Shown here piece by piece: positions 14,396 through 45,414 of a DNA stretch of 64,000 nt; position 1 is the first letter of the stretch; every line of letters begins with the position of its first letter. A program made the translations under genes and the position numbers. Source of the DNA: Eubacteriales bacterium (lineage in GTDB: Bacteria; Bacillota; Clostridia; Oscillospirales; CAG-272); assembly GCA_045632405.1 (NCBI GenBank), contig JAZQWO010000029.1, positions 17,614-81,613 on the forward strand, in the 5' to 3' direction. Under the pieces are notes generated by a model. That model was not told where the DNA came from. It worked only from the letters and a program-made list of their open reading frames with translations, and did not search any database.

Positions 14396-14655
14396 CTAAA
14401 ATGGGCAGGTAAACCGATGAGAAAGAGTAGTAACTGAGTGAGAAATGGTAAAGAGAGATGCAGGCGGTGGGATTGCATTACAGGGACCTTGGCGAATGGA
14501 CTTTTGAGGGCGGTGCTGAAGGTAAGTAGGCACTGACGGAAATGCACCGTTATAGGCATAGCGCATAGCGTAGTGCGCGTATGAGAAGTAAATTGGGTGG
14601 TACCACGATATATTCGTCCCAAGTGTCTTTACGGACACTTGGGCTTATTTTTTTG
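14396..14655 (+). promoter_or_regulatory. T-box leader (tRNA-Trp sensing) controlling trpS
   Basis: T-box sequence AAATTGGGTGGTACCACG at 14590-14607. Terminator GTCCCAAGTGTC / GACACTTGGGC plus a T run at 14616-14654. Stem-I-like GAGAAAGAGTAG. A TGG triplet at 14446-14448 sits where the specifier codon would be expected. Confidence 0.85.
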
Positions 14656-30651: not shown

Positions 30652-31035
30652 ATGAATATAGGAGATAAATTTACACTCAAAATCAAGGTTGGGGAAAATG
30701 ATACGGCAAAAGCGGTGGGCAGCGGCACGCTGGCGGTGCTTGCCACCCCTCGTATGATAGCATTAATGGAGGAATGTGCATATAAGTGTATTGGCAATAG
30801 CTTGGATGCAGGCTCAACAAGCGTTGGCACACTTATGAACGTTAAGCATTTGAGCGCCACCCCTGTGGGAATGGAAGTAACAGCTACCGCTGAGGTGACT
30901 GAAATTGACGGAAGAAGAGTAGCCTTCAAGGTAGAAGCATATGATGAAGCGGGAATAATTGGTGAGGGCGTGCACGAAAGATTTGTTGTATTCGAGGAAA
31001 AGTTTGTTTCCAAAACCTACGCCAAGCTATCATAA
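30652..31035 (+). CDS. Hotdog-fold thioesterase family protein
   Basis: 127 aa. ...AVGSGTLAVLATPRMIALMEE...HLSATPVGMEVTATAEV is typical of small FlK/YbgC-like thioesterases. Confidence 0.7.
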   Translation: MNIGDKFTLKIKVGENDTAKAVGSGTLAVLATPRMIALMEECAYKCIGNSLDAGSTSVGTLMNVKHLSATPVGMEVTATAEVTEIDGRRVAFKVEAYDEAGIIGEGVHERFVVFEEKFVSKTYAKLS

Positions 31036-31090: not shown

Positions 31091-31188
31091 TTGCTTATTT
31101 GATTATGCTAAAAAAATTAAAGCTTTAAACTCATAGCGAAAAGAATTTTGATAAAATAAAAAAATATGAAAAAATTTGAAAAAGGGTC

Positions 31189-31217
31189 TTGACAATATAA
31201 AAGCCTTGTGATATAAT
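31189..31217 (+). promoter_or_regulatory. Sigma-A type promoter of the tRNA operon
   Basis: TTGACA (31189-31194), 17 nt, TGATATAAT (31209-31217). Confidence 0.7.
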
Positions 31218-31246
31218 AGTCAAGCATTAAGCGTTGAGCAGAATTT

Positions 31247-31322
31247 GGCGGAATAGCTCAGAGGCTAGAGCATCCGGTTCATACCCGGCAGGTCATAGGT
31301 TCAAATCCCATTTCCGCCACCA
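31247..31322 (+). tRNA. tRNA-Met (anticodon CAT), elongator-like, CCA encoded
   Basis: Cloverleaf folded by hand: acceptor GGCGGAA/TTCCGCC, anticodon arm TCCGG-TTCATAC-CCGGC, T arm ATAGG-TTCAAAT-CCCAT. A lysidine-modified Ile2 identity cannot be excluded. Confidence 0.85.
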
Positions 31323-31327
31323 TAAAT

Positions 31328-31402
31328 GGCCCGTTGGTCAAGCGGTTAAGACACGGCCCTTTCACGGCTGTAACATGGGTTCGATTCCCGTACGGGTCAC
31401 CA
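31328..31402 (+). tRNA. tRNA-Glu (anticodon TTC), CCA encoded
   Basis: Acceptor GGCCCGT/ACGGGTC, anticodon loop CTTTCAC, T arm TGGGTTCGATTCCCG (stems TGGG/CCCG, with A-TGGG and CCCG-T giving one non-Watson-Crick end pair). Confidence 0.9.
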
Positions 31403-31412
31403 AAATAAAACT

Positions 31413-31443
31413 AAGTCGAACTTTGGTTCGACTTGTTTTATTT
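31413..31443 (+). terminator. Hairpin plus U-rich tract after tRNA-Glu (family AAGTCGAAC-N4-GTTCGACTT)
   Basis: A 9-bp stem with loop TTTG and tail GTTTTATTT. The same stem recurs at 34737-34767 and 41930-41958. Confidence 0.6.
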
Positions 31444-31634
31444 ATCCAAGCCGAAGGTTTGGTATGGCATCAGCCGTTAGGCTGTATGGAATCACATTTA
31501 TGTGTATGGCATCACCGTATGGTGCATTTCTTCGGCTTGATTCTATACGCCACAAAGTGGCAATTCCATACTGCAACAAGTTGCAGATTCCATACACGCT
31601 AAAGCGTGATTATATGCAACGCTTTGCGTTGATT
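31444..31634 (+). repeat. Hairpin-ladder element, copy 1 (candidate structured ncRNA or DNA site array)
   Basis: Seven hairpins at 31471-84, 31493-504, 31513-24, 31549-61, 31571-86, 31595-608 and 31617-31. They are separated by the linkers TATGGCAT, TATGGAAT, TATGGCAT // ATTCTATA, ATTCCATA, ATTCCATA, ATTATATG. CAAGCCGAAG (31447-56) is complementary to CTTCGGCTTG (31530-39). Confidence 0.7.
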
Positions 31635-31645
31635 GAGGTGAGCTT

Positions 31646-31999
31646 ATGAAGAAAAATTTGCTAATGGAATATAGCGAACAGTTAGCTGTTAATATGGTAA
31701 AGCTATGTAATGAAAATAAGTTTGACTCCAATGTAGTATTTCAAATCAAAAAATCTTCTTCAAGTGTATTTGCTAATATAACCGAAGCACAATACCCACA
31801 AAGCCTTGCTGATATGCACTCGAAATTTGAAATTGCAAGAAAAGAGTGTGCGGAAACCGAAAGTTGGCTAAAGCTTCTTTTCTCAACCGAAGCAATAAAC
31901 GAGGAAACCTTTAAAAAGCACAGAAACCTCTGCGGCAGAATCAAAAGAATGCTCACAAGCTCTATAATCACAATTGAAAACAAAATGAAGCAAGGCTGA
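31646..31999 (+). CDS. Four-helix-bundle protein (23S rRNA intervening-sequence protein / Avd-like family)
   Basis: 117 aa, all-helical. ...QIKKSSSSVFANITEAQ....S..D...KF.IARKECAETESWL.LL is typical of the TIGR02436/PF05635 family as I recall it. RBS GAGGTGA. Confidence 0.75.
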   Translation: MKKNLLMEYSEQLAVNMVKLCNENKFDSNVVFQIKKSSSSVFANITEAQYPQSLADMHSKFEIARKECAETESWLKLLFSTEAINEETFKKHRNLCGRIKRMLTSSIITIENKMKQG

Positions 32000-32020
32000 A
32001 AATTCAACCTTGCTTTTCTT
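31987..32020 (+). terminator. Terminator overlapping the 4HB gene stop codon
   Basis: AAGCAAGGCTGAA / TTCAACCTTGCTT stem with one mismatch, followed by a T-rich tract. A better-paired copy lies at 35010-35042. Confidence 0.6.
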
Positions 32021-32151
32021 TATTTTCAAAAATGCTTTGGACAGCTCTCGTTCAAGACAAGCACACGCCCGAAAACAAAATCGCAAATTTGGTGTAATTT
32101 TGGTAAGTAATGGTAAAAAGAAAAGTTATTTAATAAAAATTCTTATAACGA

Positions 32152-32180
32152 TTGAATTTTATTTTGTTTTGTGGTAAAAT
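32152..32180 (+). promoter_or_regulatory. Candidate promoter of the LRR-B gene
   Basis: TTGAAT (32152-57), 17 nt, TAAAAT (32175-80). Confidence 0.45.
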
Positions 32181-32330
32181 ATGTTTGCGACACATTTGAA
32201 TATTCCTGCAAGTAAGAGAGTACTATAGGTAAAAATGTACTCTCTCCCCTTGTTATTGGTGGAAAATGTGTCGCAACATTGAGAGAGGCGTTTTTCGTGC
32301 GTCTCTTAATGGGGCGCACTTTTTTATTTT
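32181..32330 (+). promoter_or_regulatory. Structured 5' leader of the LRR-B gene (candidate attenuator)
   Basis: ATGTTTGCGACACATTT (32181-97) pairs with AAATGTGTCGCAACAT (32264-79). An inner 9-bp hairpin is AGAGAGTAC/GTACTCTCT (32215-45). GTGCG...CGCAC plus T6 lies at 32297-32325. Confidence 0.4.
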
Positions 32331-32361
32331 GAAAAGAAAATATTTATTAAAGGAGAGTTTT

Positions 32362-34509
32362 ATGAAGCGCAAAATTTTACTAACATTCATTTTGGCAGCC
32401 ACCTTGATAGCCCTGTTTGCTATCTCCGTCAGCGCCGCCGAGCCTGTGGAAACATGGGACATTTCCGCAACGGCAAATGACAATGTAACTGCATATCTCT
32501 ACGAGGATACGGAAAATGAGGAATGCTACACTCTAACTATCAGCGGTACGGGTAATATGAAGAATTGGACAAGTGGCGGTACTCCTTGGTATTCTTCATA
32601 CAGTTCGAAAATCACCTCTGTCACAATTAAAAAAGGCGTTACAAGCATAGGCTCTTCAGCATTCGAGAAATGCAGAAAACTTACAAAGATAGAACTGCCA
32701 GATAGTTTGAAAAGAATAGGTAACGATGCATTCTATTATTGTGACACTCTTACTAGTATAGAATTGCAAAAAAATGTTACAAACATAGGGAATGATGCAT
32801 TTGTTAGTTGCTATAGTCTTATAGATATCAAAGTTGATGAGGAGAATACCATATACCAATCAATAGATGGAAACTTGTATTCCCATGATGGTAAAACTAT
32901 AATACAGTATGCACTAGGCAAAACTGATACATATTTTGTTATTCCGGATTTTGTGACAACTATAGGAGAAAGTGCATTTGAAAGTTGTTATCGTTTGAGA
33001 CATGTTTTACTACATAATGATGTAACTCGGATAGAAAGAAGCGCTTTTAATAGTTGTTCTAACATAAAGAGTATAAATATACCTGCTGGGGTGACATATA
33101 TAGGGGGCTTTGCTTTCGGCTTTTGTTATGATTTGACAATTTATGTCGAGGCTCAAGGCAAGCAAACTGAATGGGATCAATATTGGGATTATTCGTTCAA
33201 TGGACGAACAAAATGGGAGATAAGAGATAGTGGATTTTTGGAAGATGGTCTTGTTTGGCTAAAATTAAGCGACGACACGGTAACTATAGCAGGGTGTTTG
33301 TACGAAAAAGAAGAAGTTGAAATTCCCGATGTAATTAATGGATATAATGTTACTACTATCGGCAAAAATGCATTTCTCGAATCAGCATATTTAGAGACTG
33401 TAACAATTGGTAGCAACATAACAAATATAGATTATTCAGCATTTTCCGAATGTACAGCTTTGAAAAGTATAATCATAGGTGAAAACGTTAAAAAAATCTC
33501 TCATGAAGCTTTTAAGGGATGTACATCGTTAAAAGAAGTGGTGATACCGAACAATGTAACAATGATAGACTATGGTGCATTTTGGGGTTGCAAAAGTTTA
33601 ACAAGTGTAGTAATCAGCGATAGTGTAACAAGTATAGGCAATTATGCATTCGCTGGTTGCACAGAACTTGCAAACATCGTATTACCGTTTGTTGGCAACA
33701 CTTTGAACGGAACGAAGTTTACACATTTTGGCTATATATTCGGAGCATATTATGATACCGAAAACGATGAGTGTGTTCCCGCAAGTTTAAAGAGTGTTAC
33801 TGTAACTGGTGGAAACAGTATAAATTCCTATGCATTCTACAAATGTAATAACATAACAAGTATTGTTATCGGTGATGGCGTAACAAGCATAGGCAATTCT
33901 GCGTTTATTGGTTGCACGGGCCTAACAAGTGTGGTAATTCCAGATAGTGTAACAAACATAGGCAATTCTGCATTCTCTAGTTGCACAAGTCTCACAATCT
34001 ATTGCGAGGTTGCAAGTCAGCCAAGTGGATGGAGTACAAGTTGGAATCCTTTAAATTGTCCTGTTATTTGGGGCTATCTAGACAAAGAGGCTTGCTTGAT
34101 TAAAATCTTCACATTTAAGGGCTACTCCTTCAACGAGTCAGGCTCTATGGCTATAGGCTTTGACATTGATTATGAAGCAATCAGACTTTACGAAGAATTA
34201 ACAGACGAAAAGCTTGAAATTGGTGTATTGTTTGCAGGCTATGATTTGTTAAACGGACAAAATCCTCTTGATAATCAAGGTAATGCAATTGCTCTTGCAA
34301 GCGGCAAGGTTATAAAGAGTGATTTGACAAGCTATTCTTACTCCTATTATGACTTTATTTTGACTGATATAACAGGTGATATTTGTAACATTCCTCTTGT
34401 AATATCAGCATACATAAACAATGGTAGTGAAAGCTGGTATATCCAAGCAAATGGACTTAGCTCCACTGTAACAGGTATAACCTACAACGAAGCAAAGGAG
34501 AATAACTAA
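32362..34509 (+). CDS. BspA-type leucine-rich-repeat surface protein with a C-terminal module of about 135 aa shared with the 37951 gene
   Basis: ATG at 32362 follows AAGGAGAG. Signal peptide MKRKILLTFILAATLIALFAISVSA. Many LRR_5-type repeats (..IG..AF..C..LTS..IP..V..IG). The gene is AT-rich compared with the core genes. Confidence 0.85.
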   Translation: MKRKILLTFILAATLIALFAISVSAAEPVETWDISATANDNVTAYLYEDTENEECYTLTISGTGNMKNWTSGGTPWYSSYSSKITSVTIKKGVTSIGSSAFEKCRKLTKIELPDSLKRIGNDAFYYCDTLTSIELQKNVTNIGNDAFVSCYSLIDIKVDEENTIYQSIDGNLYSHDGKTIIQYALGKTDTYFVIPDFVTTIGESAFESCYRLRHVLLHNDVTRIERSAFNSCSNIKSINIPAGVTYIGGFAFGFCYDLTIYVEAQGKQTEWDQYWDYSFNGRTKWEIRDSGFLEDGLVWLKLSDDTVTIAGCLYEKEEVEIPDVINGYNVTTIGKNAFLESAYLETVTIGSNITNIDYSAFSECTALKSIIIGENVKKISHEAFKGCTSLKEVVIPNNVTMIDYGAFWGCKSLTSVVISDSVTSIGNYAFAGCTELANIVLPFVGNTLNGTKFTHFGYIFGAYYDTENDECVPASLKSVTVTGGNSINSYAFYKCNNITSIVIGDGVTSIGNSAFIGCTGLTSVVIPDSVTNIGNSAFSSCTSLTIYCEVASQPSGWSTSWNPLNCPVIWGYLDKEACLIKIFTFKGYSFNESGSMAIGFDIDYEAIRLYEELTDEKLEIGVLFAGYDLLNGQNPLDNQGNAIALASGKVIKSDLTSYSYSYYDFILTDITGDICNIPLVISAYINNGSESWYIQANGLSSTVTGITYNEAKENN

Positions 34510-34510
34510 A

Positions 34511-34678
34511 ATGAAATATACAACTCCAACATATAACAAAGAAACAATAGAAACAGAGGACATTATTTTAGCTTCAAGCGGAGTAATTGATTTAGGCAAT
34601 GGCACAAGCTTAACAGAAACAGCTGATGGAAACGCTAACGTTTTGGCAAGCGTTCTTGATATTTTAGGCTTAAGATAA
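34511..34678 (+). CDS. 55-aa microprotein, possibly translationally coupled to LRR-B
   Basis: The ATG lies 1 nt after the LRR-B stop codon. Product: MKYTTPTYNKETIETEDIILASSGVIDLGNGTSLTETADGNANVLASVLDILGLR. It is not in the ORF track because it is shorter than 60 aa, and it has no separate RBS. Confidence 0.4.
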   Translation: MKYTTPTYNKETIETEDIILASSGVIDLGNGTSLTETADGNANVLASVLDILGLR

Positions 34679-34720
34679 AAGGCTTAATTAGATTTAATTT
34701 CAATATAGCTTGGCACCTGC

Positions 34721-35042
34721 TCACCAAAATAAAACTAAGTCGAACTTCGGTTCGACTTGTTTTATTTATCCAAGCCGAAGGTTTGGAATGGAATCACCGT
34801 AAGGTGCATGGAATCAGTCGCACAGCGACTGTATGGCATCAATCGTTAGATTGTATTGTTTTTTGCTTCAGTTTGATTCCATACGACACTGTGTGTCAAT
34901 TCCATGCTGCAACAGGTTGCAAATTCCATACACGCTATGCGTGAGTTCACACAATGCGTTGCATTGATTTTAACAATTTCCAAACCCACGCACCACAATT
35001 GAACAAAAACAAAGCAAGGCTGAAATTCAGCCTTGCTTTTCG
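34721..35042 (+). repeat. Direct-repeat copy 2 of the module at 31397-32020 (terminator hairpin, hairpin ladder, 3' remnant of the 4HB gene, terminator)
   Basis: Positions 34721-34787 are nearly identical to 31397-31463, with one loop mismatch. The ladder at 34768-34968 is diverged but has the same 3+4 hairpin layout. CACAATTGAACAAAAACAAAGCAAGGCTGA matches the last codons of the 4HB gene. The 4HB ORF itself is absent. Confidence 0.75.
34737..34767 (+). terminator. Terminator hairpin after LRR-B and the microprotein (AAGTCGAAC family)
   Basis: AAGTCGAAC ttcg GTTCGACTT followed by GTTTTATTT. Confidence 0.6.
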
Positions 35043-35062
35043 TTATGCTACTATTTAGCTTA

Positions 35063-37333
35063 TTAATTAAAGTTGGATGTGCTATAAACCTTACCGTTGT
35101 CAGTAACTACTGCAAGAACGCATCCCTTGAGTCCCTTAGCGTTCCAGTCACAAAGAGCAAGCTCTACTGTAAGGGTGGCGCTAGTTTCACCCTCTGCAAA
35201 GAACTGCTCGAGCCATGCATACTGAGTTGCGCTACCGGAATAGAGAAGCACGCCACCAACGTAGAAGGTTACGTTAGTATATGAGCCTTGTTGCTTTGAC
35301 ACCTTTTCAACCGTTGCTGTAACTACGTAAACGTTTGTAGTTGCTTCAGGTGTATCAACAACCGAGGCAATAGCGTTAATTTCCTCTCCCGTGATAAATG
35401 AATTGGTGGAGTAATCATGATTTCCGTAATAGTTTGCAAGGATAACCGCGTTATCAATTACTATTTGTCCACCGCCGTCCTTTGTTATAGTTCTTGTGCC
35501 CTTAACTACAACCTCGTCGCCGATTGACAAGCCATCCATTATTTCGTTAGTGCCACGAACAGGAATTGCGCCGTTTTCGGAAATAAGATAGAATGTTCCC
35601 TTTTGGTTAACAGCTGAAGGACCAACAATACCCTTGACAGTTACCTCTGTGTTATTTTCAGCTACGATAGCCTCGCCGACAGTGATGCTATCGTATCCCT
35701 CTTGAGCCTCTACAATGATTGTGATGCTTCTTTCAAAGTCGTTTACACCTGTGTAGCTGCCCTTAACTGTTACTGTTACCTCGCCTGCAGAAAGTGTCTT
35801 GAAATAAGTCTTTCCGTCCTCTGTGATAATTGTGGCAACAGCATTGTTGGAAACGGTGTAGCTTAATACCGCGCCCTCAAAGCCAAGAAGCTCTGATGAA
35901 GCAGATGTAGGAAGCTCAATCTCTGCATTCACCATATATGAATTTTCAAAAGAAGGAGCACCTACATAGTCAACTGCATATTTTGGAGCATCTGCATTAT
36001 CAAATACGTAATTTTCATAGATTACCTCAACAGGGATAAATCTCCAAATGCATCCTGCAGCTGATGACTTTGCGTTTATGCAGGAAAGATAAACCGTACA
36101 GATTTTGCCGTCGAATGTATTGAGCCAAGCAAAATCGCTACCGTTACACTGCGTATAGGTGTACGAGCCTGTTACACCGTCAAGATCGTTGATATAGTAA
36201 TTAACGAAGCCTGAGCCTGGAGCCTTTGTAACAAGAGCGGTTACCTTATAAATAGTAGTGGTAAAGTTTTCAGCATCATAAGGAGTTTCCATCATTTCCT
36301 TTACAGTGCTTTCTGTTATCCATGATTTATCAAATTCGTTATTACCGTTATCGTTATCTACCAAGGTTGCATCTGTAAGCTGACAGCAGCCCTGATAACC
36401 GAATTTATTAGCGTTGTTTTGCTCTGTGTCAAGGATCCAATAATCCTTTCTTGCACATACTGTAACCTTGTTGCCCTCTTTTACTCTTTGAGCAGCATCT
36501 GAATCGTAAACATAAATTGAATTTGTTTCATCTACAAGATAAAATCCGCATGGCTTCAGGCCAAATGCGTAAAGAACCTTAGCAACAACACCGTCAACCT
36601 TAACAAGCGCGTCCTTTTCTGCTTCTCTTGCACTGTTAATTGACATTTCGGTGTAGTTGGAGCTATCAAAATCATCTGTCTTAGATACAAAATCGATGAT
36701 CCAACCGCTATTAATTTCGATTGTGCCTTGGTAGTTTTTGAGGTTACCGTATATGATTACCTCATCGCCACGGTATGGAACGCTTTCCATTTCGGAATAA
36801 CGGAGAGCTCCGTCTGCACTGTATGTGCCGTACACGTAAATTGTGCCTGTACTGTCGCTTATATTCATTGTGCCGTACTGAGCATTTTCAATAGAGTCAA
36901 TTGTCGCGCGAATGTAGTAGCGCTCAGCGGTCACCTGTCCGTCTGCGATATCAAATGCAAGAGCCTCTTCAATTGTTATGTAATCGTAATCGAATTTCGC
37001 ATAAGCCGTCATATCATTTTCAATTACAGTATCCTTGTTAAAGGGAACTGTAAATGCTTCATCATCAAACCAACCTAAAAATTTCTTGTCTGTCTTTTCG
37101 GGATCAGCAGGCATATCCCATGATTTGCCTTCGGTTACGTCAACGGTAGCATATGTGCTTCCGTCAACCGTAAATGTGATTTTGTAGCTTTTAGCTGGGA
37201 CATCAGTGTCAGTTGTGTTAGTACCTGTTGACACGTCTGTGGCATCCGGCTCATCTGTGTTTCCGCCGCAGGCAGAAAAAATCATAACTGCCATAAGGAG
37301 CAACGCAAGGAGAAAAATTCGTCTGAGTTTCAT
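35063..37333 (-). CDS. Large lipoprotein: Listeria-Bacteroides repeat, four OB-fold-like modules and one Big_2-like Ig domain
   Basis: ATG at 37333 follows AGAGGTG. Lipobox IFSACGG. KFLGWFDDEAFTVPF...MTAYAKF is a flg_new-type repeat. A recurring pattern resembles ..V.V.G.V......G.FYL.D..G.I.VY. SAGEVTVTVKGSY looks Big_2-like. Confidence 0.7.
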   Translation of the reverse strand: MKLRRIFLLALLLMAVMIFSACGGNTDEPDATDVSTGTNTTDTDVPAKSYKITFTVDGSTYATVDVTEGKSWDMPADPEKTDKKFLGWFDDEAFTVPFNKDTVIENDMTAYAKFDYDYITIEEALAFDIADGQVTAERYYIRATIDSIENAQYGTMNISDSTGTIYVYGTYSADGALRYSEMESVPYRGDEVIIYGNLKNYQGTIEINSGWIIDFVSKTDDFDSSNYTEMSINSAREAEKDALVKVDGVVAKVLYAFGLKPCGFYLVDETNSIYVYDSDAAQRVKEGNKVTVCARKDYWILDTEQNNANKFGYQGCCQLTDATLVDNDNGNNEFDKSWITESTVKEMMETPYDAENFTTTIYKVTALVTKAPGSGFVNYYINDLDGVTGSYTYTQCNGSDFAWLNTFDGKICTVYLSCINAKSSAAGCIWRFIPVEVIYENYVFDNADAPKYAVDYVGAPSFENSYMVNAEIELPTSASSELLGFEGAVLSYTVSNNAVATIITEDGKTYFKTLSAGEVTVTVKGSYTGVNDFERSITIIVEAQEGYDSITVGEAIVAENNTEVTVKGIVGPSAVNQKGTFYLISENGAIPVRGTNEIMDGLSIGDEVVVKGTRTITKDGGGQIVIDNAVILANYYGNHDYSTNSFITGEEINAIASVVDTPEATTNVYVVTATVEKVSKQQGSYTNVTFYVGGVLLYSGSATQYAWLEQFFAEGETSATLTVELALCDWNAKGLKGCVLAVVTDNGKVYSTSNFN

Positions 37334-37418
37334 AATACACCTCTTCTTCAAAAAATTTTTAAGAGCATAAAATACCCTTAAAGTGCACCGCTGGAATTTG
37401 AAATCTCGGCGCTTTTTA

Positions 37419-37447
37419 ATTATATCATAGTGAAAAAGTCAAGTCAA
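37419..37447 (-). promoter_or_regulatory. Sigma-A type promoter of the 35063-37333 gene
   Basis: On the minus strand: TTGACT, 17 nt, TATAAT. Confidence 0.55.
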
Positions 37448-37510
37448 TAAAACCACACTTTTGTCGAAAAGTGTGGTCGAATTTATTCTATTTAGGAGTC
37501 ATTAACGAAA

Positions 37511-37723
37511 TTATATTAAAATTTTGTTGTAGCTACTTATTTTAATGAAAATTCGTAATGTGTAAAGTCCCCATATAAACAACAACAAGGACACACTCAA
37601 TGATGCAGCCGCCACGTCTTCGCCTCTGATGGCGAAAAATGATGCAAGCATATTTGTTGCATGGTTAGCACCAAAATTGAAAACAGTTACCACGCAACCG
37701 GTATTGTTAATTATTTTCATCAT
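37511..37723 (-). CDS. Small hydrophobic protein (70 aa), unknown function
   Basis: It has its own RBS (AGAGGGG) and its own downstream terminator hairpin CCACACTTTT/AAAAGTGTGG at 37451-37480. One C-terminal TM helix. Confidence 0.45.
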   Translation of the reverse strand: MMKIINNTGCVVTVFNFGANHATNMLASFFAIRGEDVAAASLSVSLLLFIWGLYTLRIFIKISSYNKILI

Positions 37724-37876
37724 TGCCGCCCCTCTAAATTTCCTGCCGTAAGTTTAACACACCGAGGGAAAACTGTCAAGCAACCTGTAGTTGATTTGGC
37801 AAAACTGAACAAATTCCTTTGTGAAAGCAAGGTGAAAAAAGTGTAAATTTTGTGAAAGTTGCCGAGTGGGATTTCG

Positions 37877-37906
37877 TTGACTTTTTCCCCTTAAATATAG
37901 TATAAT
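37877..37906 (+). promoter_or_regulatory. Candidate promoter of the 37951 gene
   Basis: TTGACT (37877-82), 18 nt, TATAAT (37901-06). Confidence 0.5.
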
Positions 37907-37950
37907 TATATAAGAAGAACAGAATTTGCTATGCGAAAGGATTATTAACA

Positions 37951-40900
37951 ATGAAACGCAAAATTTTATTGATGTTTACGGTTGTTCTTATGCTTGCCTT
38001 TGCCTTGTGCGTTAATGCGCAGACGAGTGATGGCGGAATGGAAGATATATTTGAACTGAAGGGATATTCACTTAGTCCTGACGGCACAGGTATTTCAGCA
38101 GGCTTTATTTTGAATTACGATGCTAAGGATGCGTATGAAGCAGAGCTTGGCAAATCGGTTGATATCGGTGTTGTTTTCGCATCATATGACGAGCTTGGCG
38201 CCAAAAATCCTCTTGACGAGAATGGAAATCCGCGTGAGCTTGATGAAAGCTACGTATTCAAGTTTTCCTTGAACGATTATGACTACATAACCTATAACTT
38301 TAATTTGACAGATCTTACAGAGAAGCTGTATGCTCACAAGTTTGTTATCTCTCCGTATGTATTTGACGGCGAGAATGTTTACTACTTTAATGAGGACGGT
38401 GTGAGCGCAGAGGCAACAGGTATTTCCTACGAGGAAATTTACAAGCTTGTTCACGACCACACATTTAACAGTGTTGCTTCTCCTGAGTATTTGGCATCAA
38501 GCCCAAGCTGTACGGAAAATGCAACATACTACAAATCCTGTCAAGGATGCGGCGCGATTTCCGATGAGCGCTTCGAGGCGCAGAGCACAGCCCTTGGCCA
38601 TGTGCCGACGGTACTAAGTGCAGTTGCTCCAAATTGCACACAGAGTGGCTTGACCGAAGGCTCATACTGTAAAGCATGTAACAAGGTGCTTGTTGCACAA
38701 ACAACAGTTCCTTCTGCAGGACACAATTATGTGTATTCAGCAAGCAAATCTACCACCCCTACCTTGAACGCGGCAGGCAAGAAGGTTAGCGTTTGCGCAG
38801 GCTGTAACGGAACAACAACTCAAACGGTAAGTAGGCTTACTGCAACAAAGGTTACAAAAGACCAAATATATAATGTAGAAACAGGCAAATTCAATCCGGC
38901 TATCAATAACATCTGGAAGGTTTTTGACGGAGATATTGTTTCGCAGGGTATCTATACACCTGGTAACGACTGGTTTGGTAACGTTGGTGATGTTTTGACA
39001 ATTACGTTGGATCAAGAAATGTATCTTTCTTCCTTATACGTGTATATCTCGGGCAACTATACTAAGGCGAAGATCACTGTCAAAAATGCCGACGGCGTGG
39101 TGACTGCATCAAATACTGTATTAGCGAACGCGGGTGAATACACCGGTAACGGAACAAAAACTGAGGCTTTCGCAAACAAAAATATATTGGCATATACAAT
39201 TGAAGTTGAAATAACAGAGCTTAAGTGGGGAAGTGCAAAAACATTTAAGCTTGCTGAAATGGAAATTTTTGCAGCGGATATTGATTTGAGCTTCAATCAT
39301 ACACACGTTTACAGAGAATTTGTGGAGCAGGATGCGGCTCCAACCTGTACAAGAGCAGGACTTGAAACACGTGCTTGCTACTGTGGCGAGGAAAAAGAAT
39401 TTGTACTTGAAACACTAGAGCACAATTACAGTACACTTTCTTACAGAAAAGAGGCAACCTGCACAATAGACGGTAAAGAGGTTTATTTCTGTGAGTGCGG
39501 AGCATCAAAGGATGTTGCACTTGCAGCACCTGGACATATTTACGAAAGGTTTATTCGCTATTCCCTTGAGCCTGCATATGGCTATGACGGTGCGGCTATT
39601 TATCAGTGCGTAGGCTGTAGCGCAAGAGAAGAAAGAGCAGTGCCAATGTTGGCGCTTGAAGAACTGAAATATGTTCGTGTAGCAGAAATCAACGGCACAA
39701 CCGTTACATTGAAATTCAATATTGCACATTCACCCGCAAGCTATGAAATTAGATATAGCAAGAATGAAATCACAAGCGCTAATTTCCAAAATGCAACATT
39801 GGTTAGCGCAACAGTAACAGGTGAGCGCGAAATGACAGCTGTGTTTAATCTGGATGCAAGCTTGAACAATGGCTACTATGTAGCAATCAGACCTTATGTA
39901 GGCGAAAACGTTGGTGAGGTTTACTCCATAAGAGTTGGCGGAAATCAGCTTATTCCTATTGATTACAGTGATGCAAGAGTATACCACGGTGAAACACTTG
40001 CAAGCTTTGTAAAGATGTTTGACGAGCAGTATGGCTACAACAGTACACCGTCATCCGTTTTGGGCAGAATCTTTACAGATAAAAACGATACGCTTCTTTA
40101 CGGCATGTCACTTGCTCCAATTGTTGACCTTGAATATATGCACTATGTAAGTGATGTTTACGTTTACTTTAATGCAGCAAGTGCTGGAAAGACTGTAAAG
40201 GTCAGATGGTCAAGGACTCCAGTTGATTTCCAGGCAGAGGATGGTGCGTGGGATGGTCACTGTATAATTACCTCCTCCGAAGGCTGGAGATATGTTCCAA
40301 TTTCACAGGAAACAAGATATATTCAAATTGTATTTGAGGATGGCTTTGCTCCTTCTGAAATGCTTATTTACGGCTATCAGAGTGCGGAGGGCGACAAGAT
40401 TACCTTGACAGAGCGCGAAAACCCAACAATTGGTGATATGATGGGTATGTGCGGCTTTGTTGCAGGCGGTGGCGGTAATACTCCTATTGATTCCGTTATT
40501 TGCTCAACAGTGTTGAGAGAGTACCACAACTTCGGTTGGTCATATGATGCGAACTCATACGCAGGCAAGCCGTCATTTATCAGATCAAGCTGGTTTGACT
40601 TTGACGTTGCGTATAGAGATTATACTAAAGCGGGCTTGAATGTTATCCCTTGTATTCAGTGGAATTTGGAAAGGGATTCTATATGCAATAAGGTTGACTC
40701 AAACAATATGCCTATCATTGAAAATGATGCATTTTCAAGAGGAAACTTCTTCGATAAGTTCAACCCATACACATACTTTACATATGCGGACAGTATGTTT
40801 GCACTTGCTGCAAGATACGGCTCTAACAACTCAGCGGCACTTGCTGAAATTGCGGCTCAGCGTACTAACGCATCACAGGCGGTAGGTCTTGGCTACATCA

Positions 40901-41919
40901 AGTGGATGGAGCTTGGCAACGAGCCTGACGGTTCATGGAACGGTGTTCACAATTACTATTCTGCATATCAATATGCTGCACTTTTGTCCGCAGGCTATGA
41001 CGGACATTGCGGCACAATTCAGTCAAGTGTCCTTGATGGTGTTAACCACTTTGGTGTAAAATCAGCAGACCCTAATATGGGCGTTGCTATGGCAGGTATT
41101 GCAGCGGCAGACTGTAACTATGTAAATTCAATTAACTATTGGATGAGAGCAAACCGTCTTGACGGCAAGATTGCTTATGATGCCTTTAACGGACACCATT
41201 ATATGACAAAGCAGGTTGTTATTGAGGGTAACACATTCACAGTGGGTGCAAGCCCTGAGGAAGGTAAACTCAAAGAGGTTATGTCTAACTTTGTTAACTT
41301 GAGAGATAAGTATTATAGTGACAAAGAGGTTTGGATAACTGAGTTCGGTTGGGATACTAACCAAAGCTACGCAACAGAAACCTCAGCACATGCATACGGT
41401 AACTACACAGGCAGACAGGTACAGGCAATGTGGCTCACCCGTGCATACTTGCTCTTGTCATCCGCTGGTGTTGATAAAGCAACAATGTATATGTGCGAGG
41501 ACGGAGGCATTGAAGCAGAAAGTAGCGGTAAATATGGCACCTGCGGTGTTATCGGCTATGAAAAGGATGCTAACGGAAATTTGGTAGAGGTTAAGAAGGA
41601 TTCTTACTACTATATGTACACCTTGAAGAACACTCTTGGTGAATTCCGCTTCAACCGCGAAATTACCGCTTATGATGAAAACGTAATGATTTACGAATAC
41701 GTTTCAGACGACGGAAGAACAGCATATGCTGTATGGTGCAAGACATCTGACGGTACAACATCCGATAACTATCAGCTGAGAATTGGCGCTGACAGCGCAA
41801 CTCTCGTTGAAGCAGTTTACGGTGATATTGACGGTGTTGAAACCAAGCTTACAAGCGACGATGTTGGTTGTGTAAGCATCAATGTTTCTGAAAACCCTGT
41901 TTACGTAGTAATTGACTAA
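37951..41919 (+). CDS. 1322-aa secreted multidomain protein with a C-terminal clan GH-A-like glycoside hydrolase domain
   Basis: Signal peptide. Shared module at aa 31-165. Cys/His repeats PxCT..G.....CxxC........GH. Two jelly-roll/discoidin-like segments. Catalytic-type motifs WMELGNEPDG (40903-40931) and VWITEFGWD (41326-41355). Confidence 0.75.
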   Translation: MKRKILLMFTVVLMLAFALCVNAQTSDGGMEDIFELKGYSLSPDGTGISAGFILNYDAKDAYEAELGKSVDIGVVFASYDELGAKNPLDENGNPRELDESYVFKFSLNDYDYITYNFNLTDLTEKLYAHKFVISPYVFDGENVYYFNEDGVSAEATGISYEEIYKLVHDHTFNSVASPEYLASSPSCTENATYYKSCQGCGAISDERFEAQSTALGHVPTVLSAVAPNCTQSGLTEGSYCKACNKVLVAQTTVPSAGHNYVYSASKSTTPTLNAAGKKVSVCAGCNGTTTQTVSRLTATKVTKDQIYNVETGKFNPAINNIWKVFDGDIVSQGIYTPGNDWFGNVGDVLTITLDQEMYLSSLYVYISGNYTKAKITVKNADGVVTASNTVLANAGEYTGNGTKTEAFANKNILAYTIEVEITELKWGSAKTFKLAEMEIFAADIDLSFNHTHVYREFVEQDAAPTCTRAGLETRACYCGEEKEFVLETLEHNYSTLSYRKEATCTIDGKEVYFCECGASKDVALAAPGHIYERFIRYSLEPAYGYDGAAIYQCVGCSAREERAVPMLALEELKYVRVAEINGTTVTLKFNIAHSPASYEIRYSKNEITSANFQNATLVSATVTGEREMTAVFNLDASLNNGYYVAIRPYVGENVGEVYSIRVGGNQLIPIDYSDARVYHGETLASFVKMFDEQYGYNSTPSSVLGRIFTDKNDTLLYGMSLAPIVDLEYMHYVSDVYVYFNAASAGKTVKVRWSRTPVDFQAEDGAWDGHCIITSSEGWRYVPISQETRYIQIVFEDGFAPSEMLIYGYQSAEGDKITLTERENPTIGDMMGMCGFVAGGGGNTPIDSVICSTVLREYHNFGWSYDANSYAGKPSFIRSSWFDFDVAYRDYTKAGLNVIPCIQWNLERDSICNKVDSNNMPIIENDAFSRGNFFDKFNPYTYFTYADSMFALAARYGSNNSAALAEIAAQRTNASQAVGLGYIKWMELGNEPDGSWNGVHNYYSAYQYAALLSAGYDGHCGTIQSSVLDGVNHFGVKSADPNMGVAMAGIAAADCNYVNSINYWMRANRLDGKIAYDAFNGHHYMTKQVVIEGNTFTVGASPEEGKLKEVMSNFVNLRDKYYSDKEVWITEFGWDTNQSYATETSAHAYGNYTGRQVQAMWLTRAYLLLSSAGVDKATMYMCEDGGIEAESSGKYGTCGVIGYEKDANGNLVEVKKDSYYYMYTLKNTLGEFRFNREITAYDENVMIYEYVSDDGRTAYAVWCKTSDGTTSDNYQLRIGADSATLVEAVYGDIDGVETKLTSDDVGCVSINVSENPVYVVID

Positions 41920-41929
41920 AACAATATGA

Positions 41930-41958
41930 AAAAGTCGAACCTCGGTTCGACTTTTTTC
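41930..41958 (+). terminator. Rho-independent terminator (AAGTCGAAC family)
   Basis: AAAAGTCGAAC ctcg GTTCGACTTTT followed by a T run. Confidence 0.8.
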
Positions 41959-42045
41959 TTAAATATAATTGATATTTTGTCCCCAAACATAGCAAAATAT
42001 GCTACAATATATATAATAGCATTTTGAGTTCACATAGGAGAAACA

Positions 42046-42699
42046 ATGAAATTCGGAGAGAAAATTAAAGCCTTAAGGGTGAAGAATAATTTGACACAGG
42101 AGCGGTTAGCATCACAGCTTTATGTGTCGCGCACCGCTGTATCCAAATGGGAGAGCGACAGGGGATATCCTAATATAGATTCATTAAAGGACATAGCAAA
42201 GCTATTTAATGTCACAGTGGATGAGCTGCTATCCAATGAAGAAATAATAGATATTGCTAAAAAAGAAAATATTTCAAACGTTAAATCCTCGAAAAGACTG
42301 ATATTTGCGCTTCTGGATTTAATTAGCATTCTTTTGATATTTTTGCCACTTTATGCACACAGGGCGGAGGATTTTATATATTCTGTTTCACTAATTAGTG
42401 CAAATGGAATAGGCTTTATAGCTAAAATATGCTTTATTATCATTCTTTCGTTGCTTTCTTTGGTGGGCGTTTTGGAGTTGATTTTTTGCTTTGTTGACGG
42501 CAAAAGGATGCAAAGGCTATTGCAAATATTGTCAGTTGCAGTGCAAACCGTTTCCATTTTATTTTTCGCCCTTTCAAAGCAGGCGTATTTAACCACCGTG
42601 GTTTTCATTTTATTTTCCATTAAACTCGTAGCACTGTTTGTGAATGTTACTAAAAGTGTCAAGGAAAATTGCAACTGTGACAGTAAGTTTCTTGATTAA
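42046..42699 (+). CDS. Membrane-tethered XRE-family transcriptional regulator
   Basis: HTH IKALRVKNNLTQERLASQLYVSRTAVSKWE followed by about 4 TM helices. Confidence 0.75.
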   Translation: MKFGEKIKALRVKNNLTQERLASQLYVSRTAVSKWESDRGYPNIDSLKDIAKLFNVTVDELLSNEEIIDIAKKENISNVKSSKRLIFALLDLISILLIFLPLYAHRAEDFIYSVSLISANGIGFIAKICFIIILSLLSLVGVLELIFCFVDGKRMQRLLQILSVAVQTVSILFFALSKQAYLTTVVFILFSIKLVALFVNVTKSVKENCNCDSKFLD

Positions 42700-42752
42700 C
42701 TGATACATTTGTAATAAACTCGGAGTAGGCGAATGCCGAAAGGAGAATTATT

Positions 42753-43403
42753 ATGAATAAAAACAAAAGGAAATTTTTACTCAGCACCATTTTAGTCATT
42801 TTATCAATCATATTTACCGTTTTAGTTAAGCTGGTGGATGTTGGCACTTGCGGTGAAACTAACACAGAGGTCGGCTTTTCCCACATTAATCAATTTGTAT
42901 TTGATTTAACAGGAGTCCATATGGTGTGGTATCATATTACAGACTGGTTAGGTCTTGTGCCAATTGCTATGTGCTTTGTGTATGCTTTTATTGGGCTTTT
43001 TCAGTGGATTAAGCGAAGACACCCTTTAAAGGTGGACAGAGAAATTTTGGCGTTGGGTGTATTTTACATTGTCACATTGTCCGTTTATATATTCTTTGAG
43101 AATATTATCTTTAATTATAGACCTGTTTTTATAAACGGATTTTTAGAGGCATCTTATCCATCGTCACATACGGTGATGGCGCTTTGCCTTTGTATCAGCT
43201 CCATTATGGTAAACAAAAGGCTGTATAAAAGCAAGCTTTCCAAGGCTATGAATATAATATCCGCCGTTATCGTTGCGGTGACAGTTTTGGGAAGGCTGAT
43301 TTCTGGCGTACATTGGTTTACTGACATTTTGGGTGGCGTTATTATATCGTCAGCCTTGCTGATGTGCTATTATTCCGTAATTTCCGCAGAATCTGAACGG
43401 TAA
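42753..43403 (+). CDS. PAP2-family membrane phosphatase
   Basis: Acid phosphatase motifs SYPSSHT and GRLISGVHWFTDILGG in a polytopic membrane protein. Confidence 0.8.
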   Translation: MNKNKRKFLLSTILVILSIIFTVLVKLVDVGTCGETNTEVGFSHINQFVFDLTGVHMVWYHITDWLGLVPIAMCFVYAFIGLFQWIKRRHPLKVDREILALGVFYIVTLSVYIFFENIIFNYRPVFINGFLEASYPSSHTVMALCLCISSIMVNKRLYKSKLSKAMNIISAVIVAVTVLGRLISGVHWFTDILGGVIISSALLMCYYSVISAESER

Positions 43404-43476: not shown

Positions 43477-45414
43477 ATGAGCAATAAATTGTTTTCATAT
43501 ACGATTATGCCTCTTGATGTTGCACATTTAGAGGAGATTTGTCAGGATATAAAGCAGCAACACGAAAAAGGAATAGCGTCAATGGCGCTTTTTAAAATGA
43601 CGTTAGTGCCCGAGGGCAATCCCCCTGCCGACAAGGTGACTATTCTTTGTAAGCAGTTTGCAAAATTCAAATCGCGCCTTGGAGAGATGGGCTTGAAATG
43701 TGGAATTTTGGTGCAGGCAACGGTCGGTCACGGTTGGATTTTGGGAGAAATGTTCCCGTATCAAACCCACGTAAATTTCACTGATGGAGTACCCACAAGA
43801 GTGGTGTGCCCTTGCGACCGCGACTTTTTGCAATTCCTATATAATGAAATGTCAATTATTGCAAAATATGAGCCTGACCACGTAATGATAGATGACGATT
43901 TGCGCACCATATGGTTTAAGGGTGAGGGCTGCGCCTGTCCGTTGCATATGGAAATGTTCAATAAGCGCGCAGGTACAAGCATTAGCAGAGAAGAGCTTTG
44001 GGAGATTGTCAACCAAAGAACAGAGCAAAGCAAAAAATTTACAGATATATTTGTTGAATGTCAAAAGGACTCTCTTGTAGAGGCGGCAAAAACTATCAGG
44101 GCAGGCTTTGACAGTGTCAATCCAAAGCTGCCTGCATCCTATTGTTGTTGCGGAAATAATGCAGAATTTGCATATGAAATATCGTCAATTTTGGCAGGCG
44201 AGGGTAATCCTGTAACTGTGCGAATAAACAACGGTAACTATACACCCCAGGGTGCAAGATATTTAAGCCGCGTTTTCCACCGTGCCGCTACACAAATTGC
44301 AAAGCTGAAGGGGCGCGTAGATGTTATCTTGGCAGAAACCGATACCTGTCCACAAAACCGATACAGTGTAAGCGCAAACGGTATGCACGCCCACTATACA
44401 GGCTCAATTTTAGAGGGTGTAAATGGAGCTAAGCATTGGATTACCCGATTGATGACTCACGAGCCCAAGAGCGGTGAAAAATATAGAGAAGTTTTAGCGA
44501 AAAACAGAGGCTTTTACGAAAAGCTTGCTGAAATACAGCCAGCTCTCAAGTGGCGCGGATGCAGAATTTTTGTGCCCTCAACTCCTGACTTTACATACGG
44601 CAGAGTAAAAGAGGAATGGGACGGCTGGAGCTATTGCGTGCTGGAAAAATTGGGCTTGCCAATGTATTATTCAGCGGAAAACGGTGGTGTTGTTTGCTTA
44701 GAGGGTGATGCAGATAGCAGGATGGATGACGCCGAGGTTTTGGAAATGCTCCGCGGTAATGTTATATTGGCGTCCGACACGGCAAAAAATTTGATTGACC
44801 GAGGATTTGGTAAATATCTTGGAGTTGACGTTCGTGAGTGGAACGGCAAGCAGCCTGTGCGTGAAATTTACAAAAGTGGAGAGTGCTCAGGTGTTCAAAT
44901 GCAAATCAAGGAGCTTGTTCCGTTGAGTGAAAAAACCATTGTAAATTCCAAGGCTTGCAACACCACGGATTATGAAAATTACGAGTATCTTTTCCCGGGA
45001 GTTACTGAATATGAAAATGAGCTCGGGGGACGCGTGTTTGTATTTTCGGGCACCCCTGTGGCTGAATTTCATCTGTCAACCGCCTTTTCATTCCTTAATT
45101 ATTCAAGAAAAGAGCAGCTGATTGATCTTATGAAAAAGACAGGAGAAATGCCTGTATATTATCCTAATGACGAAGAGGTATATTTCAAGGTGGCAGATAT
45201 GCCAAGTGGACAGGTCTTTTGTGCATTGTTTAATATAGGACTTGACCCCATAGAAAAGATTGAGCTTGTGTGTGATTTTGAGGCTAAGAGGTTTGAAGCT
45301 TTGATGCCAAGCGGCGACGTGAAGGAAATAAGCTATAGCAAGGAAAATGGCAGATACATATTAGATGCATCTGCGCAAATCCTTGACCCTGTGGTTATAT
45401 TTATAACAAAATAA
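43477..45414 (+). CDS. Hypothetical cytoplasmic protein, 645 aa
   Basis: Long ORF with a good RBS (GGAAAGGAAA). No signal peptide and no family recognised by eye. Confidence 0.6.
   Translation: MSNKLFSYTIMPLDVAHLEEICQDIKQQHEKGIASMALFKMTLVPEGNPPADKVTILCKQFAKFKSRLGEMGLKCGILVQATVGHGWILGEMFPYQTHVNFTDGVPTRVVCPCDRDFLQFLYNEMSIIAKYEPDHVMIDDDLRTIWFKGEGCACPLHMEMFNKRAGTSISREELWEIVNQRTEQSKKFTDIFVECQKDSLVEAAKTIRAGFDSVNPKLPASYCCCGNNAEFAYEISSILAGEGNPVTVRINNGNYTPQGARYLSRVFHRAATQIAKLKGRVDVILAETDTCPQNRYSVSANGMHAHYTGSILEGVNGAKHWITRLMTHEPKSGEKYREVLAKNRGFYEKLAEIQPALKWRGCRIFVPSTPDFTYGRVKEEWDGWSYCVLEKLGLPMYYSAENGGVVCLEGDADSRMDDAEVLEMLRGNVILASDTAKNLIDRGFGKYLGVDVREWNGKQPVREIYKSGECSGVQMQIKELVPLSEKTIVNSKACNTTDYENYEYLFPGVTEYENELGGRVFVFSGTPVAEFHLSTAFSFLNYSRKEQLIDLMKKTGEMPVYYPNDEEVYFKVADMPSGQVFCALFNIGLDPIEKIELVCDFEAKRFEALMPSGDVKEISYSKENGRYILDASAQILDPVVIFITK

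Follow-up and report, generated by a model that had tools for sequence, protein, structure and literature searches.

PF05635 proteins (“23S rRNA intervening sequence protein,” or four-helix bundle) form a very large family of which, to our knowledge, Avd of the diversity-generating retroelements (DGRs) is the only understood member. Avd works bound to structured RNA. Here we describe an element that stands beside a gene of this family in a 64,000-nucleotide (nt) stretch, hereafter the window, of a contig from an uncultured member of the Eubacteriales (JAZQWO010000029.1, positions 17,614 to 81,613). The element, which we call the ladder, is an ordered array of short hairpins and 8-nt linkers between a tRNA-Glu gene and a four-helix-bundle (4HB) gene, and it is one member of a large and scarcely described family found in uncultured Clostridia of gut and rumen.

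Closest to it in build is the Gut-1 RNA motif (RF01706), published in 2010 from human-gut metagenomes as three hairpins joined by GUGAAAU and judged “certainly” RNA by its authors (PMC2864571). Both have three short covarying hairpins and a conserved single-stranded linker of 7-8 nt, which in the window reads TATGGMAT rather than GUGAAAU. The published account of Gut-1 covers its occurrence in gut sequences only, without a bipartite architecture, a closing helix (called P0 below), tRNA linkage, or a 4HB gene (PMC2864571). The window copy has the three-hairpin-and-linker build but does not reach 50 bits against RF01706; Gut-1 has no match at 31200-32100 at E ≤ 10, nor in the whole window at the gathering score, and Rfam returned only tRNAs at the ladder locus at the gathering score and at E ≤ 10. 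An initial annotation of the window could not match the element to any class of noncoding RNA known to it. That is true of Rfam matches to the window copy, but Gut-1 has the same build and forms half of a ladder at another locus.

The 4HB protein itself has described relatives in two settings. Intervening sequences (IVSs) in 23S rRNA, such as that of Coxiella, carry an S23p/PF05635 open reading frame (ORF) and are regarded as selfish passengers (PMC4990558). As at those sites, the 4HB gene lies in a stable-RNA unit beside a predicted structured RNA and, in the window’s clade, without its own promoter. IVSs sit within helix 45 or 25 of 23S rRNA and enclose the ORF in a long stem cut by RNase III, whereas the window element lies outside 23S rRNA, behind tRNA genes, and its structure is made of short hairpins wholly 5′ of the ORF, with no inverted repeat enclosing the 4HB ORF in the window copy. 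The other setting is the DGR: PF05635 proteins are relatives of Avd and form pentamers, and the 4HB protein is a PF05635-like four-helix bundle of the same superfamily (PMC10053308). Unlike a DGR, the ladder has no reverse transcriptase or pair of template and variable repeats nearby; no reverse transcriptase was found among 18 ORFs scanned around it or as a conserved neighbor in 80 related loci. The two ladder copies in the window are not such a repeat pair, since their differences are compensatory, preserve hairpins, include indels, and are not adenine specific.

Other systems built of short repeated units are more distant. Type III toxin-antitoxin loci (ToxI) likewise place tandem short RNA units directly 5′ of a small gene with a terminator nearby, but their units are near-identical direct repeats of 34-45 nt cut by an endoribonuclease toxin, whereas ladder units of 20-24 nt differ in hairpin sequence and are inverted between the halves; the 4HB protein has no PADLOC match, and no nuclease motif was seen in it. 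An integron attC site is a single long imperfect palindrome (R''/L''-L'/R', with GTTRRRY), unlike units of 20-24 nt, and no integrase lies nearby. A CRISPR array has repeats of 24-48 nt between unique spacers, whereas in the ladder the conserved part is 8 nt long and the variable part palindromic, and no Cas protein was found among the scanned ORFs or the neighbors in the 80 loci. No T-box leader (RF00230) lies at the ladder; the window’s only one, at 14408-14624 (110 bits, 5′ of the ORF 14672-15676), is unrelated to it.

Layout of the ladder in the window

The features of the first copy (copy 1) and its surroundings are as follows.

31189-31217, + strand: sigma-70 promoter of the tRNA-Met/tRNA-Glu operon, consensus TTGACA-17-TATAAT with TG
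31247-31322, + strand: tRNA-Met
31328-31402, + strand: tRNA-Glu
31412-31445, + strand: T1, intrinsic-terminator hairpin (31412-31435) plus T-run of the tRNA operon, duplicated in copy 2
31446-31462, + strand: P0a hairpin CCAAGCCgaaGGTTTGG, whose 5′ arm and loop (31448-31457) can alternatively pair with P0b
31463-31524, + strand: first half, L1-H1-L2-H2-L3-H3
31463-70, + strand: left linker L1 TATGGCAT, followed by hairpin H1 at 31471-84
31485-92, + strand: left linker L2 TATGGAAT, followed by H2 at 31493-504
31505-12, + strand: left linker L3 TATGGCAT, followed by H3 at 31513-24
31530-31539, + strand: P0b CTTCGGCTTG, complement of 31448-31457, preceded by a short spacer
31540-31631, + strand: second half, R1-H4-R2-H5-R3-H6-R4-H7, with linkers of the reverse-complement type
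31540-47, + strand: right linker R1 ATTCTATA, followed by H4 at 31548-62
31563-70, + strand: right linker R2 ATTCCATA, followed by H5 at 31571-86
31587-94, + strand: right linker R3 ATTCCATA, followed by H6 at 31595-608
31609-16, + strand: right linker R4 ATTATATG, followed by H7 at 31617-31
31646-31999, + strand: 4HB gene (117 residues, PF05635/TIGR02436, Avd-like), with ribosome-binding site (RBS) GAGGTG at 31635-40
31988-32015, strand not assigned: T2, terminator-like hairpin 3′ of the 4HB gene, with a related hairpin after copy 2

Copy 1 (31446-31631) thus reads as the small, perfect P0a hairpin, three repeats of TATGGMAT plus hairpin, the 10-nt P0b, and four repeats of ATTCYATA plus hairpin. 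TATGGMAT occurs 17 times in the 64-kb window, against 5.9 expected and a number that none of 100 shuffles reached, and 8 of the 17 occurrences fall within the two ladder copies. A generic scan for arrays of at least three hairpins spaced 6-10 nt apart found solely the two ladder sites in 64 kb (shuffles gave 0-1), so the original observation of seven hairpins was correct. The fold z-scores of the two copies are −3.4 and −4.9. The hairpins are real and conserved, but H2 and H6, which had been drawn with 2-nt loops, have 4-5 bp and a 4-nt loop, and H4 is present as GCCAC/GTGGC with the flanking C and A unpaired. The fixed length of the 8-nt linkers, seen at first in the window alone, is conserved across homologous loci, and the reading of the element as two opposed arrays of one 8-nt box was borne out. 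The initial annotation had also proposed a 10-bp pairing that closes the left half; this helix (P0) is real and covaries, although its coordinates were one base off (31448-57 with 31530-39, not 31447-56).

A family of ladders in gut and rumen Clostridia

The ladder is conserved in more than 140 loci from more than 100 species-level genomes. A pattern scan of one genome per species gave at least 120 stretches; about 35 of the matches listed are true hairpin-linker arrays, all with the same layout and all in metagenome-assembled genomes of Clostridia from human and ruminant guts (Eubacteriales, Oscillospiraceae, Acutalibacteraceae, and Christensenellaceae). A covariance model was also built on 23 copies, with no structure supplied beyond the hairpins. 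Full-length copies score 100-190 bits against it, and a search of other genomes with the model, the kind of check that the initial annotation had asked the element to survive, recovered homologues that keep both hairpins and linkers. In every locus read (related loci are cited below by three-digit L numbers), the order tRNA, T1, P0a, first half, P0b, second half, 4HB gene is constant. No true ladder was found in IMG/VR, the INPHARED phages, or the PLSDB plasmids, and on the basis of these searches we ruled out a phage or plasmid origin.

Across 28 aligned copies the hairpins are 93% paired and 24 of 36 pairs have changed on both sides, which none of 500 shuffles equaled; this alignment is fitted to the model, and the raw sequences read by eye agree with it. 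Because the stems covary while the joints stay fixed, the element carries the signature of a structured RNA. P0 behaves similarly: P0a, its partner arm, and P0b covary three ways, loop bases included, through at least six sequence types (CAAGCC, CAATCC, CAAACT, AAAGTC, CAAGACC with a compensated insertion, and CATTGC), and in P0a G.U outnumbers A.C by 15 to 1.

At least three linker classes exist, GGA/TCC, GTA/TAC (TATGTAAT/ATTACATA), and ATC/GAT (TATATCAT/ATGATATA), and the architecture is unchanged in the latter two. About 30 ladders of the ATC/GAT class are recognized by the model, and a second genome scan, for this class, gave the same taxa as the first among the matches listed. The ATC/GAT class accompanies, behind tRNA genes, 4HB genes of 62% identity and those of a group that we call clade E (~40% identity), in which the halves stand in the opposite order, the hairpins abut, and the stems use T.G pairs of the + strand. 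A Gut-1 match (51.9 and 53.5 bits) emerged in locus L045 from an Rfam run over loci without an upstream tRNA; it lies directly behind tRNA-Gln and T1, and after it come a half in inverted orientation, whose linkers read ATTTCAT, and a closure resembling P0. Since this inverted half and closure follow it, we take Gut-1 in L045 to be the first half of a ladder of a fourth class. Ladders of the ATGATATA class have no Gut-1 match at the gathering score. Gut-1 already represents this kind of motif, then; what the present work adds is P0 and the full two-part architecture, the plurality of linker classes, the tRNA/tmRNA address, and the obligate 4HB partner.

In some loci the second half has recently expanded in tandem (L241, 2195-2400; L407, 1-240; L372, 900-1060), to as many as 8-12 units that carry identical repeated hairpins, for example CCGCCtttGGCGG four times. 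Contigs often break at the ladder, which makes it relevant to assembly and annotation. In L404, a DUF3800-XI RNA (RF02975, 54 bits, 3870-3917) lies ~165 nt 3′ of a ATGATATA-class ladder.

The address behind tRNA and tmRNA genes

Among the 110 ladders with enough upstream sequence, 71 (65%) begin no more than 60 nt after a tRNA or tmRNA gene on the same strand, and 13 more lie within 300 nt of one, usually with a short insert and a second copy of a tRNA 3′ fragment in between. The linked genes cover 14 amino acid specificities plus tmRNA, so the position behind tRNA-Glu, from which the element was first described, is one instance of a general address. Loci that share the same tRNA cluster together by 4HB identity; the modules are thus old paralogues that have stayed where they were, several to a genome.

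Several resemblances read from the linker sequences failed. Mimicry of anticodons or codons (TTC-CAT, the anticodons of the Glu and Met tRNAs upstream) was rejected because the same linker follows many other tRNAs, and a T-box-like UGGN/NCCA contact, similarity to Xer/dif half-sites, and the DnaA-box-like TTATCCAAG each failed across the linker classes.

Some ladders have stable-RNA or translation-related neighbors of other kinds. In L247 (1-1130), L229, and L211, the ladder-4HB module ends an rRNA operon tail, in the order 23S rRNA end, tRNA-Lys, tRNA-Glu, 5S rRNA, tRNA-Asn, ladder; L211 has a weaker ladder copy behind tRNA-Asn, with the 4HB-linked one ~1.5 kb beyond. A three-unit array stands directly before the RBS of an apparent leucyl-tRNA synthetase gene in L339 (4325-4400, opposite strand), and a probable cysteinyl-tRNA synthetase gene in L077 has an array that starts at its stop codon.

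Linkage to the 4HB gene

The 4HB protein exceeds the curated cutoffs of both PF05635 (70.7 bits against 33.8) and TIGR02436 (73.8 bits against 24) and matches the five-chain structure PDB 2RLD (E = 8e-14). Searching the genome collection with it yielded 80 loci at 69-92% identity; a separate search for homologous proteins returned close relatives only (at least 77% identity) and not distant family members. In 79 of the 80 loci, the covariance model finds a ladder directly 5′ of the 4HB gene on the same strand, the exception having just 78 nt of upstream sequence. The suspected tie between ladder and PF05635 gene is therefore tight among these loci. They have no other conserved neighbor gene (no reverse transcriptase, integrase, or transposase), and the 18 ORFs scanned around the ladder (25.6-53.1 kb) include no reverse transcriptase, integrase, or Cas protein.

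Several ladders without a 4HB gene (L038, L041, L076, L080, L086, L090, L062, and L069) are followed within their first 60-70 nt by a conserved T-loop-like piece, GGGTTCAAGTCC…, with the tail …AAAATATCTTTTTTGTCCGC; L118 has the piece in front of the ladder as well. Its origin may be a tRNA that has decayed to a fragment, or it may belong to the repeat unit.

Two distant relatives of the protein have surroundings of their own. On Monoglobus pectinilyticus plasmid 12 (L250, 1439-1874), a type I restriction-modification operon has an unannotated PF05635 frame of 35% identity with apparent in-frame stops between its hsdS and hsdR genes. The frame is IVS-like in that, unlike the ladder’s 4HB ORF, it is flanked by a 24-nt inverted repeat (92%). 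In L251 (1150-1490; Treponema saccharophilum pTS1), ~270 nt of purine-rich GAAAG(N)GGAAAG repeats, followed by a complementary CTCTCCGCTTTCC run, lie directly 5′ of another four-helix-bundle gene.

Strand preference, promoters, and the proposed module

By folding energy, the first half folds better on the + strand in 77 of 89 copies (p = 1e-12). The whole element shows the same preference (61 versus 28, p = 1e-5), as do 6 of 7 clade E copies. Stem pairs in the covariance-model alignment say nothing about strand (G.U versus A.C, 22 to 19), and single stem mismatches fall mostly at the closing position, in mirror image in the two halves; the comparison of folding energies was the more informative. 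Between the tRNA promoter and the start of the 4HB gene the window has nothing that resembles a promoter, and 31189-31217 is the sole promoter-like site on the + strand 5′ of the 4HB gene. It follows that this gene would have to be read through T1. A promoter inside the ladder was considered and dropped: the window has none, and it is only in some clades that a conserved promoter follows the ladder.

The most economical reading of these results is a two-part module, a structured element and an Avd-like gene, that rides on stable-RNA operons. In the version that we tentatively prefer, and regard as possible rather than probable, the ladder acts as RNA of the + strand, the tRNA-sense strand, made by terminator read-through and serving as a platform for the 4HB protein. 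It would be the cis-acting half of a module that occupies tRNA and tmRNA operons of uncultured Clostridia at their 3′ ends. RNA polymerase passing T1 would transcribe the ladder and, in the window’s clade, the 4HB gene. The first half would present three covarying hairpins with single-stranded 8-nt joints, closed by P0 in competition with P0a, and the second half would add 3-8 hairpin units before the RBS. A trans-acting factor may recognize the joints, the pentameric 4HB protein being the most plausible one, in which case the ladder could serve as an assembly or autoregulatory platform as well as a 5′ stabilizer of the 4HB message. Other PF05635 genes, which ride inside 23S rRNA IVSs, would offer a parallel.

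The ladder gives one whole branch of PF05635 a fixed structured nucleic acid partner and a fixed place behind tRNA and tmRNA genes, across more than 100 uncultured species of gut and rumen, and it joins the orphan family and the orphan Gut-1 motif, unexplained since 2010, into one testable pair. In a broader version, the ladder and a stand-alone Avd-like pentamer would together form a ribonucleoprotein or nucleoprotein system not described before, living on stable-RNA operons (those of tRNA, tmRNA, and, via the IVS relatives, rRNA). It would be a selfish or domesticated “stable-RNA hitch-hiker” whose protein and linker classes (GGA, GTA, ATC, and GAA) have codiversified, and the large orphan PF05635 family would gain its first defined nucleic acid partner outside DGRs. 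This version seems to us speculative and on the whole unlikely.

A number of observations weigh against an RNA read from the tRNA promoter. T1 resembles an efficient terminator and stands 2-10 nt ahead of the ladder. Ladder and 4HB gene are separated by a promoter-like TTGATT-17-TATACT in the ATTACATA class, and by-eye reading finds TTGATT-17-TGgTATAAT at that place in the ATGATATA class; the ladder would lie outside that 4HB mRNA in both classes. The second half, in the main clades, has a slight folding advantage on the opposite strand (57 versus 30, p = 7e-4). Left and right units are inverted copies of each other down to the loop bias (G..A 60 versus 2 in left units, T..C 50 versus 5 in right units), and the swapped halves of clade E follow a DNA-like dyad logic. 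One-orientation arrays of 3-15 units occur at other intergenic sites, and the 4HB gene adjoins only 6 of the ~26 full ladders found by DNA pattern. Copies among relatives also differ by recombination, tandem duplication, and presence or absence.

Alternative explanations

Several of these observations would be expected if the ladder were a DNA-level repetitive palindromic element resembling the repetitive extragenic palindromes (REPs) and bacterial interspersed mosaic elements (BIMEs), an explanation that we think somewhat unlikely but a serious rival. The 8-bp box would then be a site, in both orientations, for the 4HB protein or a host factor, the spacers would form hairpins or cruciforms, and the element would spread and expand between genes, especially behind heavily transcribed stable-RNA operons. 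Ladders and REP/BIME elements are alike as multicopy intergenic hairpin palindromes that occur in both orientations, with and without a protein gene, in arrays that expand and contract. The inverted relationship of left and right units including their loops, the swapped halves of clade E, the ladders that lack a 4HB gene, the one-orientation arrays of 3-15 units, the recent tandem expansions in L241, L407, and L372, and the breaking of contigs at the element all fit, as does the concerted change of class in the L and R boxes (GGA/TCC, GTA/TAC, ATC/GAT), which shows no register specificity. What such a view leaves unexplained is the hairpins, since a double-stranded site needs no palindromic spacers of ever-changing sequence, and a single strand is indicated both by the bias of folding toward the + strand and by the surplus of G.U in P0a. 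Moreover, the polarity of the ladder behind tRNA genes and relative to the 4HB gene is strict. A REP conserves its palindrome and a 5′ GTAG tag, whereas in the ladder the palindromes vary and covary, are unconserved even within a genome, and the linker is what is conserved. Nor is the Y1/HUH transposase of REP-associated (RAYT) systems linked to the ladder, whose sole linked gene encodes a non-enzymatic-looking four-helix bundle.

The second copy of the ladder in the window bears on another possibility, that ladder, tRNA 3′ end, and T1 form an insertion site and that the 4HB protein is accessory to a recombinase encoded elsewhere. Its features are as follows.

34721-34769, + strand: start of copy 2, a duplicated tRNA-Glu 3′ end (TCACCA, the last six tRNA bases) plus T1′
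34770-34966, + strand: ladder of copy 2, with P0a′ (34770-86), three L units, P0b′ (34866-75), and four R units
35011-35039, strand not assigned: T2′, terminator-like hairpin homologous to T2

The two copies lie in direct orientation, each beginning with the tRNA-Glu 3′ end. The 3.3 kb between them contain the 4HB gene, a BspA-type leucine-rich-repeat (LRR) gene, and a 55-residue ORF. A genomic island at a tRNA gene is likewise bounded by a direct repeat of the tRNA 3′ end but carries an integrase; the direct repeat here, TCACCA plus T1 plus ladder, amounts to ~250 nt of diverged ladder, and no integrase was found. The body of copy 2 belongs to the L203 lineage (91% identical) and that of copy 1 is nearest L171 (85%; L173 and L177, ~83%), yet the first 76 nt are near-identical between the copies, and P0a′ no longer matches P0b′. 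Ladder copies recombine, as these mixed lineages, the common first 76 nt, and the P0 misfit show, and this also sits uneasily with the RNA platform that we prefer. No 4HB gene follows copy 2 in the window, and T2′ marks the former place of a lost one; a deletion that spared the downstream terminator is seen at several sites without a 4HB gene (window copy 2, L040, and L255). Among related loci, L252, a close relative, has tRNA-Glu and T1 without a ladder, and L255 has lost both ladder and 4HB gene.

Such empty and decayed sites, the many copies that follow only a tRNA 3′ fragment, and the standing of tRNA and tmRNA genes as classic integration targets would all suit an attachment module. We nevertheless consider one quite unlikely, though, like the REP-like reading, a serious rival. 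Neither the neighborhood of the window copies nor the 80 related loci contain an integrase or transposase. The element is absent from IMG/VR, INPHARED, and PLSDB, and orthologous positions are stable across many species, as in the tRNA-Cys-linked and Met-Glu-linked groups. Because 14 tRNA types are used and the tRNAs are intact, a crossover could not lie inside the tRNA.

We judge it very unlikely that the ladder is simply a backup terminator or insulator, a hairpin cluster that stops residual read-through in both directions and has no dedicated protein partner. Transcription termination by clusters of hairpins has been proposed (PMC8355165), the ladder always lies directly after T1 and before the next gene, T1 and T2 look bidirectional, and some clades have a promoter after the ladder. 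Against this, the ladder hairpins lack T-runs, and termination does not account for P0, the strict constancy of the 8-nt joints, the switching of the boxes between classes, or the one-to-one link to the 4HB gene.

The initial annotation had suggested that, as RNA or single-stranded DNA, left linkers pair with right linkers while every spacer folds on itself, giving a stack of four-way junctions. RNAalifold and the minimum-energy folds of the two window copies do draw L1-R3, L2-R2, and L3-R1 pairings, the boxes remain complementary in three linker classes, and one compensatory change separates the window copies (TATGGAAT/ATTCCATA versus CATGGAAT/ATTCCATG). The pairing is no better than chance, however: 89.0% against a shuffle mean of 88.9% in the 28 copies. 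Across 93 copies, covariation in the nested linker register is 0.084, compared with 0.102 in the physically impossible parallel register, and the class-defining linker position covaries (G-C to T-A) equally in both. L3 is mismatched with R1 at position 6 in 84 of 89 copies, the class-defining position lacks a pair in ~25% of cells, and the tRNA-Cys-linked group has heterogeneous right linkers (ATAACATA, ATTCCATA, AGGACATA, and ATTTCATA) that are not complementary to its own left linkers. Single-orientation arrays occur alone, with no partner array. Given the shuffle-level pairing, the lack of register preference, the L3 mismatch, the tRNA-Cys linkers, and the lone arrays, the minimum-energy folds with paired linkers are probably not the selected structure; the complementarity of left and right linkers stems mainly from both being conserved. 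The stack also conflicts topologically with the covarying P0 helix, and as a native structure it strikes us as highly improbable. Loop-loop kissing between the halves was likewise set aside, only H2-H4 being marginal (17% versus 6%, with a shuffle maximum of 15%) and the other pairs giving none.

The DNA around the two copies

The region 31100-43400 of the window is a variable block that contains the tRNA pair, both ladders, and LRR, Flg_new-repeat, 1322-residue, helix-turn-helix, and PAP2 genes. The 1322-residue protein has no Pfam match. The 55-residue ORF (34511-34678), whose start overlaps the LRR gene stop (ATGA), has no match in Pfam, NCBIfam, PADLOC, or PHROGs. In L253, L254, and L257, the thioesterase gene (30652-31035 in the window) is followed within ~1 kb by a homologue of the 645-residue gene (43477-45414). 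A small repeat (…GGTTCGCATTTTCG…CGAAAATAGTTCACG.AGTGAACCTTCCCGCTTGC…) lies between tRNA-Glu and a repeated tRNA-Glu 3′ fragment in L255 (1710-1925) and L266 (4180-4570), and in L266 it is present twice.

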